A DNA stretch of 64,000 nucleotides from Podarcis cretensis (Eukaryota): positions 27,528,001 to 27,592,000 of the forward strand of contig OX638160.1 of NCBI GenBank assembly GCA_951804945.1, written 5' to 3'. Shown here piece after piece: positions 1-6,549 of the stretch (position 1 is the first letter of the stretch; the number at the start of each line of letters is the position of its first letter). The translations under genes were made by a program, and so were the position numbers. The notes beneath the pieces were generated by a model. It searched no databases and was not told the DNA's origin. It saw nothing but the letters and a program-made list of their open reading frames with translations.

Positions 1-2993
1 CTCCTATTTCTGTCAGCTTGCTTCTTATATTCTTCTTTGGCTTTCTCTAAGTTGAGTTGGAGCTGACGGTGGATCGCTTCCATCTCTTCAACAAAATTTT
101 CCGCTGCAGGTACACTCCACCTTCCCCCGCCCTCTCCTGGAAACGCCCGAGGATGACACCCATAATTGGCTAGAAAGGGACTCATCCCTGTGGACACGTT
201 CTCCGCGTTGTTGTAGGCAAATTCTGCCAGAGGTAACCAGTCCACCCAATCCGTTTCTCTGTCCTTTACATAACACCTCAGATATTGTTGCAAAACCCCG
301 TTTGCCCTTTCTGCTTGCCCATTTGTTTCTGGGTGCCTGGCGGTGGAAAAACTTACCTCCACATGCAACATGCTCATTAGTTTCCTCCAGAACCTAGAAG
401 TAAATTGTTTTCCTCTGTCGCTCAAAACCCTCAAGGGGGCGCCATGCAACCTAAAAATGTGCTCCACAAACAACCTTGCGGTTTCTTCCGCTGTCACTGC
501 ATGTGAACAAGCTATAAAGTGGCACATCTTAGTTAGTAGATCTACCACCACCATGACCGCGGTTTTCCCTTTGGATCTCGGTAGATCGGTCATGAAGTCT
601 ATGGATACCATCTCCCATGGCCTTTCTGGGGTGGGTAAGGGTTCTAATAACCCCGCTGGCGCCAACCTCTCTCCCTTTGCTCTTTGGCACCTGTCGCATC
701 CCCTGACATACTCCCGCACGTCCTCCCGCACCTTGGGCCACCAAAACTCCCTGGTAACCAACCACATGGTTTTGTGCTGCCCGAAGTGCCCCGCCGTGGG
801 ACTGTCATGCAACTGCTTAAGCACCCGCCCTCTTAGTTCCCCACCTGGTATGTAGAGCGCCCCTTTGTAATATAGTTTTCCGTTCTTTTCCTCAAACCCC
901 CCTGCGTTCTCACCTGTCTCCCTGAGTTCCCTAAGTTTCTCTTGGGCATATTCATCGTTTTCAATACCCTCTACCAGTTCTCTTTGCCCCACCAATGCCG
1001 CCCCACAAACCCAGTGGTCCTCTGAGATGATATGTCTTTCTTCCGCCCCTCCTTCCCCCTCCAAGTACTCAGGTTTTCTGGAGAGAGCGTCCGCCCTGAC
1101 ATTCTCAGCCCCTGGCACGTAGCGAATCTCAAAATTGAACTTGGAGAACTCTTGCGCCCATCTTACTTGTCTCTGGTTCAACACTCGGGCTGTTCTCCAG
1201 TATTCTAGATTTTTGTGGTCTGTCCGCACTTGAACCTTGTGTTGCGCTCCAATCAACAGGTGTCTCCATCTCTTGAACGCTTCGTGGACAGCGAGTAATT
1301 CTCTGTCGTACACTGTATAATTCCTCTCAGACTTGTTCAATTTCCTCGAGAAGAAGGCACACGGCCTCCATTCCGACGTATTCGCTCCTGGCTGCAGAAG
1401 CACGGCCCCCACCGCTCTGTCAGACGCGTCGGTTTCCACCCTCATCGGCTGCTGCAGATCCACGTGTAAGAGTTGTTCTTCCGAAGCAAACGCCCTCTTT
1501 AAACTTTCGAAAGCTCGCTGCGCTTCTTCCGTCCAGACAAATTTCTTCTTACTGCTGAGACAATCCGTGATGGGGGCTGTTAAATGGGCGAAGTTCTTGA
1601 TGAACTTCCGATAGAAGTTTCCGAACCCCAAAAACCTCTGCACATCTTTCTTAGTTTTCGGTGGCCTCCATTCCAGCACCGCTTGCACCTTGCTAGGATC
1701 CATGGCCAGCCCCTTGTCCGACAACCGGTACCCAAGGAATTCCACCTCCCTGGTGTGAAACTGACACTTCTCCAGTTTCACCCACAGCTGGTTTTCTTGC
1801 AGTTTGCTCAGTACTTCTCGCACATCTCGCACATGCTGCTCTTCATCCTCCGAGTACACCAGTACATCGTCCAAGAACGCAGCACAGTTCTTGTACAGCA
1901 ATGGTCCTAGTACGTGATTCATGAATGATTGAAATACTGCTGAACCCGCCTGGAGGCCGAAAGGCATAACGCAGTACTCAAATGCCCCCAAGGGGGTGAA
2001 CATAGTGGTTTTCCACTCATCTCCCTTTCTCATACGTATCAGGTTATACGCCCCCCTCAGGTCCAGCTTGGTAAAAATCTTCCCTTTTCTCACCCGGGTC
2101 AGAATGTCATCGATTCTGGGCATAGGGAAGCTCACGGGTTCGGACACTGCGTTTAGGGCCCTGAAATCCACAATTAATCTCGGTTTGTCCGAGTTTTTTT
2201 TGTCCACAAAGAACACTGGACTACCCCCCACCGCTCGTGACTCCCTGATGAACCCACGCTTGAGGTTTTTGTCAATAAACTCCCTTAGCTCCTGCATCTC
2301 TCTGTCAGACATTGCATACACCTTGCCCACTGGCAATTGCGCTCCTGGAAGTAAGTTGATTTGGCAGTCAAAGGGTCTGTGCGGGGGTAGTTTATCTGCT
2401 TCCCTTTCGCTGAAGACGTCGGCAAAATCTGCATATTGTCGTGGTACCCTACCTTGTTCCATTGCTTCTATCTTTGCTAACGTGGCCTGAGTGCCTACTT
2501 GGCCCCCTTTTTCTGTGCAGTGTCCCATACAATGCGCTGACCCAAAGGAAACCACTCTCTGATGCCATCCCACAAGCGGATCATGCAGCGCTAGCCAGCT
2601 CATCCCCAAAATGATGGGTGCTCCTCCCAACGTGGCTATATTAAACGCTATCCGTTCTGTGTGTCTTGCCACCCTCATTGTCATGGGGACAGTCTGCTGG
2701 TCTACTTCTCCCCCCAACAGCGCCCTCCCATCAATCGTGGTCACCTGCAGGGGATTTTTTAAAGGAATGGTTTGTATCTGATGGGCGGCTGCAAACTCCT
2801 TACTCATAAAGTTGCAGGAGCTGCCTGAGTCTAGTAACGCCTTCACTTTTAGTGGGTGTCCCTTTGCCAGCTCCAGCAATACCTCTATTACAAGAGCTGG
2901 TCTTGGGGGTTCTGGCGTGGGCACATTTACTGTTCCTTGGCCTGGCTGCTGTGCCCCGTCGGTGGCAGCCAGGCGTTGGCTTTTACTTGCTCC
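1..2993 (-). CDS. pol: Pol polyprotein (protease, RT, RNase H, integrase), in the -1 frame relative to gag, open to the window edge
   Basis: Manual translation gives ALLDSGSSCNF (protease), MPFGLQAGSAVFQ and AFLDD (RT), ETDASD...RELLAV...RTDHKNL (RNase H), and HDSPTAGH...CDRC, SIDF, LSDRG, QAER (integrase). It is absent from the ORF track, consistent with no stop before position 1. Confidence 0.92.
2919..2987 (-). promoter_or_regulatory. Predicted -1 ribosomal frameshift signal (heptamer + H-type pseudoknot)
   Basis: Minus strand: A_GUA_AAA (2987-2981), 6-nt spacer, stem 1 GCCUGGCUGC/GCAGCCAGGC (2974-2965 with 2949-2940), stem 2 GGGCACA/UGUGCCC (2956-2950 with 2925-2919). Confidence 0.72.
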
Positions 2994-3940
2994 TTAGCTG
3001 CTTCTCCCTCCTCCCCAACAGCTCCCGCCATTCCTTGCCATTCCTTTCTTTGCGGACAAACCCTGGCAAAATGACCTGGCTGTTGGCAGAGAAAACATTT
3101 CTTGGCGCCTTTTCCCTCCTTCTTCCGCCCTTCACTGGGGTTTGAAATTGCGCGCGCGCGCGCTGTTCCGATCTCCATCGGCTCTGCTGGCAGTGAAGGC
3201 TGCTCTGGCATCTCTGGAATGCGGAAATCCCTCCAACGCTCCCCTTTCCCTTCCCGCTTCTCCAAGGCTCTGGCCTCCTGGCGTGAGCCTATGGCCAGCG
3301 CTGATTTAGTCAGAAGGTCCATAGACTCCGCCCTGGGCCCCCGGGAAAGTTCGTCTTTCACTGCCGAAGATAGTCCTTCTTCGAACAGCATTTGTATCGG
3401 TTCCGCTGACAAATCCCATCCTAATTTATGGATCAACATGGTGAACTCAGTCCAGTACTCACGGACAGATCGGTTCCCTTGTTTACACGCCATTAACTGC
3501 CTGCGCGCCACTCCCTGCTCAATCTCGCTGGAAAACATCAGATCCATGGCGCGAAAAAACTTCCTTGTGTCCCTTAGGGCTTCATTATTGGCTGCCATTA
3601 GTGGTCTCACCCAATCTCTGGCCGGGCCTTCGAGATGCCCAATCACAAAAGCAACCCTCGAATCCTCATCAGGAAAATCATCAAACTGCAGATTGAGGGC
3701 ATATTGCATCTCAGTCCTGAAGGCTTGATAATTCCTGGGATCCCGCCCAAACTTCTGCACCAGTCCTGGCACTTTCCTCGAGAGCTGGGCGGCTTTCCCC
3801 TTTTCTGCATCATGAGCCCTCCTCTCCTCCAACCTCGCCGTTTGCAGAGCTAACTGTACCTCCAACACCCTGTACCTTTCTTCCAGGCTAGGACCGGCTG
3901 CAGCTGCTCCCCCATCTCCGGCTCCGGCTGGGTTGCTCAT
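2927..3940 (-). CDS. gag: Gag protein (337 aa), PEG10/RTL-like capsid + zinc knuckle
   Basis: ORF with capsid-like segments (VAFVIGHLEGPARDW; KQGNRSVREYWTEF; LFEEGLSSAVKDEL), an EPMEIG motif and CX2CX4HX4C (CFLCQQPGHFARVC). Confidence 0.93.
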   Translation of the reverse strand: MSNPAGAGDGGAAAAGPSLEERYRVLEVQLALQTARLEERRAHDAEKGKAAQLSRKVPGLVQKFGRDPRNYQAFRTEMQYALNLQFDDFPDEDSRVAFVIGHLEGPARDWVRPLMAANNEALRDTRKFFRAMDLMFSSEIEQGVARRQLMACKQGNRSVREYWTEFTMLIHKLGWDLSAEPIQMLFEEGLSSAVKDELSRGPRAESMDLLTKSALAIGSRQEARALEKREGKGERWRDFRIPEMPEQPSLPAEPMEIGTARARAISNPSEGRKKEGKGAKKCFLCQQPGHFARVCPQRKEWQGMAGAVGEEGEAAKEQVKANAWLPPTGHSSQAKEQ

Positions 3941-3985
3941 GATGCCTCTCTTTGCACAAGCTGCTTTCAGGCACTGTCAGATTGC

Positions 3986-4395
3986 TGTGGTGGGATAAGG
4001 AGCTGCTTGTGCGTTGAAACTCGATCCCTCAGAGCTCACTCAGTGTAGTGAAACCCTGCCTTGAGAGGAGCCCTTGAGCATGGCTCCCTCAGTCGCTGGT
4101 AGAATCTGACAGTGGGCGTTTGCGGAAGCGTTTCCAACATAAAAGCTGTTTCACAGACATGCGCCTCCTGGATTCCCTGCGTGACAGTTTCCGGCGGGGG
4201 GTGGGAGTCCTTAAGGGCTGTTCTGATACCTCCTCGCTGTTCCCACTGGAAGTATCCCAGAGCCTCCCCTCCGACTCCCTTTCCTTTGGAGCTCCCGCAC
4301 TCCCCCTACTGGTTCCCTCTTCTGCTGAAGAAGAGGCTCTCCTATTCTCCTGAAGCCTTCTCACCACCTGTCCTTCCGATGGCAGTTCCCTGACA
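3986..4395 (-). repeat. 5' LTR of the Gypsy element (~410 bp; TGT...ACA)
   Basis: Minus strand starts TGTCAGGG at 4395. The end is placed at ...CCACCACA (3986), just before the putative PBS; an alternative end is ...CTGACA at 3975. The 3' LTR is not in the window to confirm. Confidence 0.7.
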
Positions 4396-4725
4396 ATAAT
4401 GATATCTCCTGTAACAAGACGGATTGCAATACTTCATTTACTATGGGTTAAGCAAGATTAAATGTAGCAGAAATTACTTACAAGTCAAATGTGCATAGCA
4501 TTGATGTATTATATTAAATCAGAAAACTAAGGTCCTTATTTATTTGTTTCAGCAATTTTTACCTAGTATTGACCCCAAAGGGCTCCTAGAGCAGCTTTCT
4601 TAAATTCCATAATAAACGCTTAACACATACGTGTCATGTCATAATGTCCCTGAGTTTCTGTATCTACACCTTTTGACATGAAATTAAGAAATTCTTAAAT
4701 TATAATGTAAAGAGTTATTCTTATA

Positions 4726-5451
4726 GCACAGTGATCCATGTGACGGTCATCTCCAGGCTTGGCTACTGTAATTCGCTCTACACCCTTGAAGCTGTCCCAG
4801 AAACTCCAGCAGGTACAGAATGCTGCAGCGAGGCTCCTCACAGGGTCTCTGCCATGGGAGCATATTCACCCAGTGCTCTTCAAGCTGCACTGGCTCCCGG
4901 TGGAGTACAGGGTCAGATTTAAGGTGCTGCTTTTGACCTTTAAAGCCCTTCACGGCCTAGGACCCTCGTACCTACGGGACCGCCTCTCCTGGTATGCCCC
5001 ACGGAGAGCCTCAAGGTCCATAAATAACAACACCCTAGTGGTCCCAGGCCCTAAGGAAGTTATATTGGCTTCAACCAGAGCCAGGGCCTTTTCAACTCTG
5101 GCTCCGGCCTGGTGGAACGCTCTGCCTCATGAGACCAGGGCCCTGCAGGATCTGATTTCTTTCCGCAGGGCCTGTAAGACAGAGTTGTTCCGCCTGGCCT
5201 TTGGCTTGGAGCCAATTTGATTCCCTCTCTTTCTTTTTTCCTTTCCTTCTCCTCCTGCGATGAGGCTACATTTTAATATTTTAATGTTTCAATATTTTAA
5301 TGTTGTATTTTAATTTTGTTTTTAAGTTGTAATCATTCAACTTGTTTTTATTATTGCTTGTAAGCCGCTCTGAGCTCGGCCTTGGCTGGGAAGGGCGGGG
5401 TATAAATAACAATTATTATTATTATTATTATTACTATTATTATTATTATTA
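4726..5451 (+). mobile_element. 5'-truncated L2 LINE (ORF2 C-terminus, 3' UTR, (TTA)n tail)
   Basis: Peptide KLQQVQNAAARLLTG...LHWLPVEYRVRFKVLLLTFKALHGLGPSYLRDRL, typical of L2 ORF2. L2-like 3' end GTAAGCCGC...GGGCGGGGTATAAAT followed by (TTA)n. Confidence 0.88.
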
Positions 5452-6549
5452 TCTTTGGTAAAAGTAGGTGTTGGCTGTTCATGTAAGTCATACTGCAGAA
5501 TTGGCTAAACTGTGGCTTACCAGATGTTGTTCCCATCTGCTGTTGTCATGGTTGGGGGTGATGGGGATTGCAACCCAGCAACAACTAGAAGGCCACAGGA
5601 TAGCCATCACTAGTTTACTGGCTGATTCCAAAGGTTGGGCCAGTTTTGACACTATTAGTCTCCTTTTCAAAAGGCCAAAACTCCATTTTGGGAATATGCT
5701 ATACACTGTGCAGTAGGGATAAACAGATGTTTCTGGTTTTATAGTATAAACCCTCAGAGAAACCAAATAAACTTGAAATGTCTAGAAGACTAAGAAATCC
5801 GTTGGCACTTTCAGGCTGTTGACCAGAAGTAGCTTTCATTTTTTATTATTCCTCTTTTTAAAGAAACAACTGAGGCACTAAGAGCAGCAGGAGTTTACTG
5901 AAAAGAGCCACGGAATCCCCATGTTGCTATCTGTAGCTGTTGCCTTTCCCCCCACCCAAACCCATTTCTGCCACTTCTGTTCTTAAAATGTGTCTGGTCT
6001 TAGTTAGGGAATGGATGTGGAGGAGCCACTGAAAACATTCAAATATATCAAGGCAATGTTCCTTTTCAGTTTTCTTGAATGTTCTTCATTTCCCCCTAAG
6101 ATAAGGCCACTATTCATATTCAAAAGCTGTTCCTTTGAGACTGTTGGTCTCTTACAGTAGTTAATAGATTTATTCTTTAAATCACTGAATGGAATCAAGG
6201 TCTTAAATCAAGTCTGGACTCTTTCAGTCATCTAATATGTACGGAGTGATTGGTATGTACTGCTTGGAGATTGCAGCAACTGTTGCAGTACTTGCATACA
6301 TTTGCTTGTTTATAATTGGCTCCTATATGGAAAACACAGATGGTGTAGACTCTGGCTTTCCATATGTTTTTGGTTAGAGCAAATTGTGTTTAACTAGTAA
6401 TTTTAAATTCTTATTTAATTATGTGAACTGGACCTTTTTTTTGTAATAGGTGTCCAGTTTTTTTGTGTTTTTTTTGCATATTTAATAGATTTATAGCTTG
6501 CATTTCCACTATTTAGGTCTTTAAAGTGGGTCACACACATAGTTGAATA

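Follow-up and report, generated by a model that had tools for sequence, protein, structure and literature searches.

How does an LTR retrotransposon begin reverse transcription when no TGG-type tRNA site follows its 5′ LTR? The question is raised by a Ty3/gypsy element on the minus strand of the window, the stretch of 64,000 nt of Podarcis cretensis DNA analysed here (contig OX638160.1). An earlier note on this DNA proposed that the element self-primes in the manner of Tf1, using the 5′ end of its own RNA. That proposal is supported: where the LTR ends, the absence of any TGG site, the compensatory changes present in both duplexes, and mutation footprints are all consistent with it. The element is a young Ty3/gypsy chromovirus that very probably primes reverse transcription with an 11-base stretch of its own LTR, a stretch that would form the capped 5′ tip of its RNA.

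The element is 5,510 bp long and the putative primer and primer-binding site (PBS) are located at its 5′ end (Table 1). The 3′ LTR (G000:C12:27526886-27527295) lies outside the window, 706-1115 nt before window base 1. The sequence ATTAT is present at both flanks of the element, and the start and end positions of the LTR are the same in 31/31 other copies compared. The domain order between the LTRs (gag, protease, RT, RNase H and integrase), together with the 5-bp target duplication, is the Ty3/gypsy layout. The pol frame runs past the window through an SH3_Tf2-1 domain (PF24626, E 5e-19 in Pfam) and a chromodomain at the C-terminal end of the integrase (PF00385, E 3.5e-9), and then into the U3 of the 3′ LTR. 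The closest relative of solved structure is Ty3 RT, and the closest named proteins are from Podarcis muralis, with 93% identity in RT. A 27-row RT-RNase H tree, rooted on one plant row and including neither Tf1 nor sushi-ichi, places the element within a vertebrate clade of squamate, amphibian and fish elements (support 90), with fungal elements adjacent. A search for Gag homologues gave five proteins, none informative about priming. The family of the window element is young and large, with 324 matches to its junction pattern genome-wide; 90 of the 100 matches listed are family members. The overlap of gag and pol (~2993-2935) comprises a run of A followed by a GC-rich inverted repeat, and has the look of a −1 frameshift signal.

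Table 1. Features of the element and its putative priming region, in window coordinates.
Feature	Position	Strand	Remarks
Target site duplication, left copy (ATTAT, 5 bp)	4396..4400	-	Identical 5 bases follow the 3′ LTR
5′ LTR	3986..4395	-	410 bp, TG...CA; 409/410 bases identical to 3′ LTR
T-rich, TATA-like patch	4138..4145	-	−32 to −25 from A4113; putative promoter element, not a canonical TATA box
Predicted transcription starts, A4113 (main) and C4114 (minor)	4113, 4114	-	
Predicted self-primer, 11 nt	4103..4113	-	Exact complement of PBS; sister subfamilies show compensatory changes
Predicted cut between RNA bases 11 and 12	4102..4103	-	Variation at 4103 among 80 insertions
U5 arm of U5-leader stem	4001..4012	-	Inverted repeat; co-varies with leader arm across subfamilies
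Spacer, LTR end to PBS, 2 nt	3984..3985	-	PBS at +3 in all three families; unchanged in 80/80 insertions
PBS, 11 nt, without TGG	3973..3983	-	
Base after PBS	3972	-	G in window copy, C in almost every other copy; would mark the primer 5′ end
Leader arm of U5-leader stem	3954..3965	-	One A-A mismatch common to the family
gag ORF	2927..3940	-	Retrotrans_gag, Ty3 capsid, CCHC knuckle
pol ORF	1..2993	-	Overlaps gag in a different frame; protease, RT, RNase H, integrase

Comparison with the 3′ LTR and the ATTAT duplication place the end of the LTR at 3986. The 12-mer described in the earlier note therefore lies outside the LTR, as claimed, and begins at +3. Its inverted repeat (3972-3983 with 4103-4114) forms 12/12 pairs. 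Eleven of these pairs stand (4113-4103 with 3983-3973), while the twelfth, between C4114 and G3972, is a rare variant of the window copy. Position 3972 is C in 31/31 other copies and in 40/40 copies chosen by Gag alone, and among the 324 pattern matches only three junctions are non-C (two G, including the window copy, and one T). Since the twelfth pair is without family support, the primer is taken as 4113-4103. On the basis of these comparisons the primer is most likely 11 nt long and starts mainly at A4113, not at 4114, and the lineage of the window copy probably derives from a start one base earlier, at C4114. The predicted start is an A preceded by C, 31 nt downstream of the T-rich patch. 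An AT-rich patch is found at the same distance (near −30) upstream of the primer in three families, a likeness noted without a statistical test, and every primer of the matched sets described below has a purine first and a pyrimidine just before it.

Complements of this length are rare by chance. When the LTR was shuffled 20,000 times and a complement was allowed to start anywhere from +1 to +6, 10/20,000 shuffled LTRs contained one of at least 11 nt and 3/20,000 one of at least 12 nt. There is no TGG within the first 25 nt after the LTR, in agreement with the claim that a TGG-type PBS is lacking. Comparison of the post-LTR sequence with 13 host tRNA genes gave a longest complement of 7 nt and none at +3, the 13 genes being a partial host set with the tRNA halves of other genes outside the sample.

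Sister subfamilies and two other families, whose RT is about 70% and 53% identical to that of the window element, were gathered by Gag-domain searches. From 41 fetched regions, 30 contained an LTR pair and 27 were usable, with 11 regions lacking a pair and 3 partial pairs dropped; 20 further regions included 4 without an LTR pair and several with mis-set ends that were read by motif. A perfect 5-bp target duplication flanks 24/27 of the usable elements. A perfect LTR complement of 10-12 nt starts exactly at +3 in 25/27 elements with both LTRs, and the remaining two match at 10/11 positions there. At control offsets of +15 to +300 such a complement occurs in 4/7,722 cases; two elements account for all four, through their U5-leader stem. 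A duplex of 10-11 bp is kept at the same offset in the three chromovirus families of the genome (families 1, 2 and 3), with 11 different perfectly matched sets of primer and PBS letters (5, 4 and 2 per family). In one copy that is 98% identical to the window element (L197) the same position is altered on both sides of the duplex. These matched changes need not mean selection, because in Tf1 plus-strand synthesis copies the primer into the PBS (PMC11042837). Either way, whether selected or copied, they tie the LTR stretch to priming.

The second duplex is formed between U5 and the leader, where 11/12 bases pair at 4001-4012 and 3954-3965, exactly as the earlier note described. In 29/29 family-1 elements 9-11 of the 11 pairs are kept, with double changes at three positions, and the compensatory changes expected of self-priming are thus found in both duplexes. 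Tf1 has, and requires, a third duplex, an inverted repeat in U5 located just upstream of the PBS (10.1101/2022.12.06.519325). There is no room for such a hairpin in family 1, where the 16-18 nt from the U5 arm to the LTR end are without G, and constrained folds of this family gave no common stem in the sequence just upstream of the PBS; in family 3 a hairpin is possible at the end of U5. The folding z-score of 3940-4114 is only −2.0. A hairpin right after the primer (about 4091-4062) is predicted in all family-1 subfamilies that were folded, with differing letters.

The base following the PBS is C in most copies not chosen for it, in 55/57 of family 3, 49/51 of family 1 and 23/25 of family 2. 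Base −1, just before the primer, is C, C and T respectively, none of which pairs with the C after the PBS. The genome-wide exceptions to C are 24 G, 1 T and no A in family 3, 8 G, 4 T and no A in the sister subfamilies of family 1, and 2 G, 1 T and no A in the family of the window element. Where base −1 is C the exceptions total 34 G, 6 T and 0 A, so the prevalent variant is the complement of base −1. The 34 G rows include 2 fold-back rearrangements, 2 copies without the primer region and 4 duplicates; dropping the fold-backs and duplicates leaves 28 G, 6 T and 0 A. Background changes of C are 8 T, 3 A and 1 G (n = 12). The G variants recur with seven PBS types and on separate haplotypes; the nearest or tied-nearest neighbour of a family-3 G copy is a C copy in 14/22 cases, and the two G copies of the window element's family have different haplotypes.

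Some copies carry two-base extensions complementary to −1 and −2. In family 3 the next base is C in 7/7 of these, compared with 5/55 in the background, and one family-1 extension is likewise followed by C. In family 3 the base that comes next after the C following the PBS is A in 27 copies, C in 22, T in 6 and G in none. Opposite an m7G cap, MMLV RT inserts C first and after it chiefly A or C (PMC6885630). Most of the cDNA ends made by Tf1 RT gain untemplated bases (PMC3185545, PMC11042837). The simplest reading of these patterns is that a capped primer, from starts mostly at +1 and otherwise at −1 or −2, would be copied as far as its tip. Such scars are uncommon in the family of the window element, where 40/40 Gag-picked copies have no change at or after the PBS; hypervariability after the PBS is clear in family 3 and was not found in this family. 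The A variants predicted for family 2 from its base −1, a T, did not turn up there; its single variant is a T. One copy in which the PBS seemed wholly replaced is a chance match in another repeat with no LTR upstream, and the 30 of 37 follow-up pattern matches that were inspected are likewise chance matches in other repeats without an LTR upstream. Four copies from two families (L196, L424, L425 and L439) have A in place of T at the last base of the PBS (equivalent to 3973) with the LTR unchanged; these are possibly errors at the cap-adjacent base.

A further footprint is located at base 11 of the predicted RNA. In 80 distinct insertions of the window element's family, 4103 is the sole site of 495 at which all three alternative bases occur. 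It has the most rare changes in the LTR, four of them spread over four haplotypes where a non-CpG site has 0.158 on average, an excess with P 2e-5 per site and 0.01 over 463 non-CpG sites in a test made after the pattern was noticed. The peak rests on 4 copies, from one LTR of each (the 5′ side). By comparison, base −1 is changed once in the 80 insertions, and never to G. Four further cases at base 11 occur in sister subfamilies, and families 2 and 3 have no peak there. The hot spot fits what a cut after base 11 predicts and, since it lies at base 11 and not at −1, the template itself would have lost bases 1-11. Ty1 and retroviruses are known to have mutation peaks where their templates end, and a cap-templated C may be reported for Tf1 cDNA.

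The observations can be assembled into a single pathway. Transcription would start mainly at A4113 and occasionally one or two bases earlier. Bases 1-11 of the RNA would then anneal to the PBS, with U5 held to the leader at the same time in a pseudoknot, and RNase H would cleave after base 11, as in Tf1. RT is predicted to extend the 11-mer through the spacer and U5 up to base 12, the end of the minus-strand strong-stop DNA, where an occasional untemplated base could give rise to the later change at LTR base 11. Plus-strand synthesis would copy the primer RNA to its 5′ end and add C opposite the cap, whereby the bases just after the PBS may occasionally be overwritten. The twelfth pair of the window copy would be such an overwrite, from a transcript begun at C4114. 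On balance we favour the wider proposition that the genome keeps a record of self-priming, in which the bases after the PBS log the start and the cap, as C followed by an untemplated A or C, or as G or GA and then C where the start was earlier, and LTR base 11 logs the cut, and that this lineage also primes without the U5 hairpin of Tf1 and has a U3 promoter region that is coding throughout; it is held with clearly less confidence than self-priming itself.

Three other explanations have to be weighed. The primer might come from the second R, at the other end of the RNA, or be supplied by another RNA packaged alongside, and not from the tip of the template itself, which we regard as improbable. 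Two aberrant insertions could be read in this way, because in both the sequence after the PBS is U3 in reverse complement, 20 nt of it in L370 and the whole of U3 in L390, as though a molecule with U3 upstream of the primer is sometimes joined at the PBS. L390 (region of G000:C5:73262772) is a 434-bp insertion with a 5-bp target duplication, in which U3 and 11 primer bases are joined to inverted spacer and U5 and then to U5 again, with the joint exactly at primer base 11. In L370 (region of G000:C8:60321846) a complete LTR with its PBS is followed by 20 inverted bases from U3 and then by unrelated DNA, with no target duplication seen. Both are rare, and also fit fold-back of plus-strand DNA or template switching. 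In nearly all copies, however, the match ends sharply at the predicted start, about 30 nt past the AT-rich patch, and is followed by C, whereas a primer still joined to U3 would not end there; and the hot spot at base 11, rather than at −1, indicates a template that itself was without bases 1-11. A capped primer from a second RNA is still tenable.

It is less probable still that the duplex is merely structural or a DNA inverted repeat, maintained by hairpin-templated correction or plus-strand snap-back, with a tRNA half or another host RNA as primer. Fold-back products do occur, as L370 and L390 demonstrate, and the host tRNA set was sampled at 13 genes. Yet hairpin correction should hit both arms and their edges, while over 80 insertions base −1 never became G and the spacer is unchanged. 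Snap-back leaves the C after the two-base extensions (7/7) unexplained, and a host primer could not track 11 PBS sequences that each match their own LTR. There remains the reading in which the 12-mer is part of a terminal inverted repeat of an LTR ending at 3975, with the inner match arising by chance. The start of the LTR, TGTCAG, is indeed complementary to the CTGACA that ends at 3975, but an LTR end at this position is excluded, as the 3′ LTR stops at the equivalent of 3986 with the target duplication directly after it, and sister subfamilies without CTGACA there still keep the duplex. We give this reading almost no credence. Self-priming by the 5′ tip of the RNA is thus preferred to all three.

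The far end of the RNA has a second copy of the primer sequence, within the 3′ LTR. The pol frame stays open through all of U3 and over this copy (equivalents of 4395-4089 in the 3′ LTR; 4295-3989 in L031), reaching a stop 22 nt past the start of the primer copy in family 1; in family 3 the distance is 17-19 nt. Because pol reads through the 3′ primer copy, the natural 3′ end of the RNA is not the primer. Most of the U3 differences that separate subfamilies are at third codon positions; in one example 25 of 35 are, and of those 35 differences 23 are silent and 12 are not. In family 3 there are 203 codons without a stop in 4/5 copies, against 6-9 stops in each other frame; in family 2 pol stops early in the LTR. 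To judge from these frames, U3 seems to be promoter and coding sequence at once. In families 1 and 2 the sequence downstream of the primer (4102-3986) has neither AATAAA nor ATTAAA, and family 3 has AATAAA at +73.

Self-priming is established for Tf1, and is described as a common, predicted trait in the Tf1/sushi group of fungi, vertebrates and mosses (10.1101/2022.12.06.519325, PMC6317226, PMC4600332, PMC3601003, PMC5341516, PMC5006619, PMC2864245). The portion of PMC3035444 consulted has nothing further on self-priming. In the sources consulted, it is experimentally proven only in fission yeast, and the vertebrate Tf1/sushi case is described as a prediction from base pairing. Like the window element, Tf1 and Tf2 of Schizosaccharomyces pombe are Ty3/gypsy chromoviruses with no tRNA site and with a duplex flanking the PBS that involves U5. 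Tf1 uses an 11-nt primer (PMC7175516) from the 5′ end of the RNA, cut between bases 11 and 12, and both properties are predicted for the lizard element; the copying of the primer into DNA and the addition of untemplated bases by Tf1 RT are counted as a further likeness. The two differ in coding organization, the lizard element having gag and pol in different frames, and a CCHC knuckle, whereas Tf1 is a single ORF without a knuckle. The lizard element differs further in the 2-nt spacer that precedes its PBS, in leaving no room for the U5 hairpin and in a pol frame that passes through U3. Priming in Tf1 is proven by experiment, while the lizard element is known from sequence alone.

The element also resembles the vertebrate Tf1/sushi group (sushi-ichi and Amn elements; the V-clade of GyDB) in being a chromovirus with a CCHC gag, two frames, a chromodomain and a self-complementary PBS. 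Its RT groups with squamate, amphibian and fish elements in the tree. It is set apart from that group as a lacertid lineage. Butler et al. (2001) are said to have proposed self-priming, and a 'pretzel' structure, for vertebrate Tf1/sushi elements. The literature searched, which was without that paper and some primary Tf1 papers, has nothing on self-priming in squamates or on footprints in genomic copies. Plant chromoviruses of CRM group A differ in having a CR motif and a tRNA-type primer site (PMC3059260), whereas the lizard element has a classical chromodomain followed by a low-complexity tail in U3 with no Pfam match.

The architecture by itself is to be expected in the Tf1/sushi group and would not surprise a specialist. 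With the mechanism already known from Tf1, the new part is the pair of footprints at the start and cut sites. If they hold, the vertebrate case would advance beyond complementarity to imprints that the reaction itself left (primer 5′ end, cap and cut site), and would constitute direct, sequence-only evidence of self-priming in a vertebrate. Start and cut sites could then be mapped in any high-copy Tf1/sushi family without RNA data, and the same test could be applied to any genome with many young copies, including lineages in which self-priming is only suspected.

Some more distant relatives and neighbouring sequences were encountered. The generality of C after the PBS is weakened by distant relatives in metagenomes, where it is present in 2 and absent or ambiguous in the others with a readable duplex; 35/80 of these metagenome loci have a flanking repeat, mostly through overlaps at contig ends. 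Six of them with both LTRs and RT identities of 43-47% (L266, L276, L282, L318, L321 and L275) have an LTR complement of 8-13 nt right after the LTR, and another (L308) has a TGG-type site instead. A candidate fourth family in the genome (L186, G000:C5:96517700-96527200) was left out of all counts since the end of its 3′ LTR is disrupted. In this distant element an 11-bp duplex of its own lies at what would be +3, with C after it, and the U5-leader stem is long. Within the window, a plus-strand frame of 158 codons with a tail of short repeats lies at 4744-5460, 350 bp from the insertion site; it has no Pfam match, and looks like the 3′ end of a LINE.
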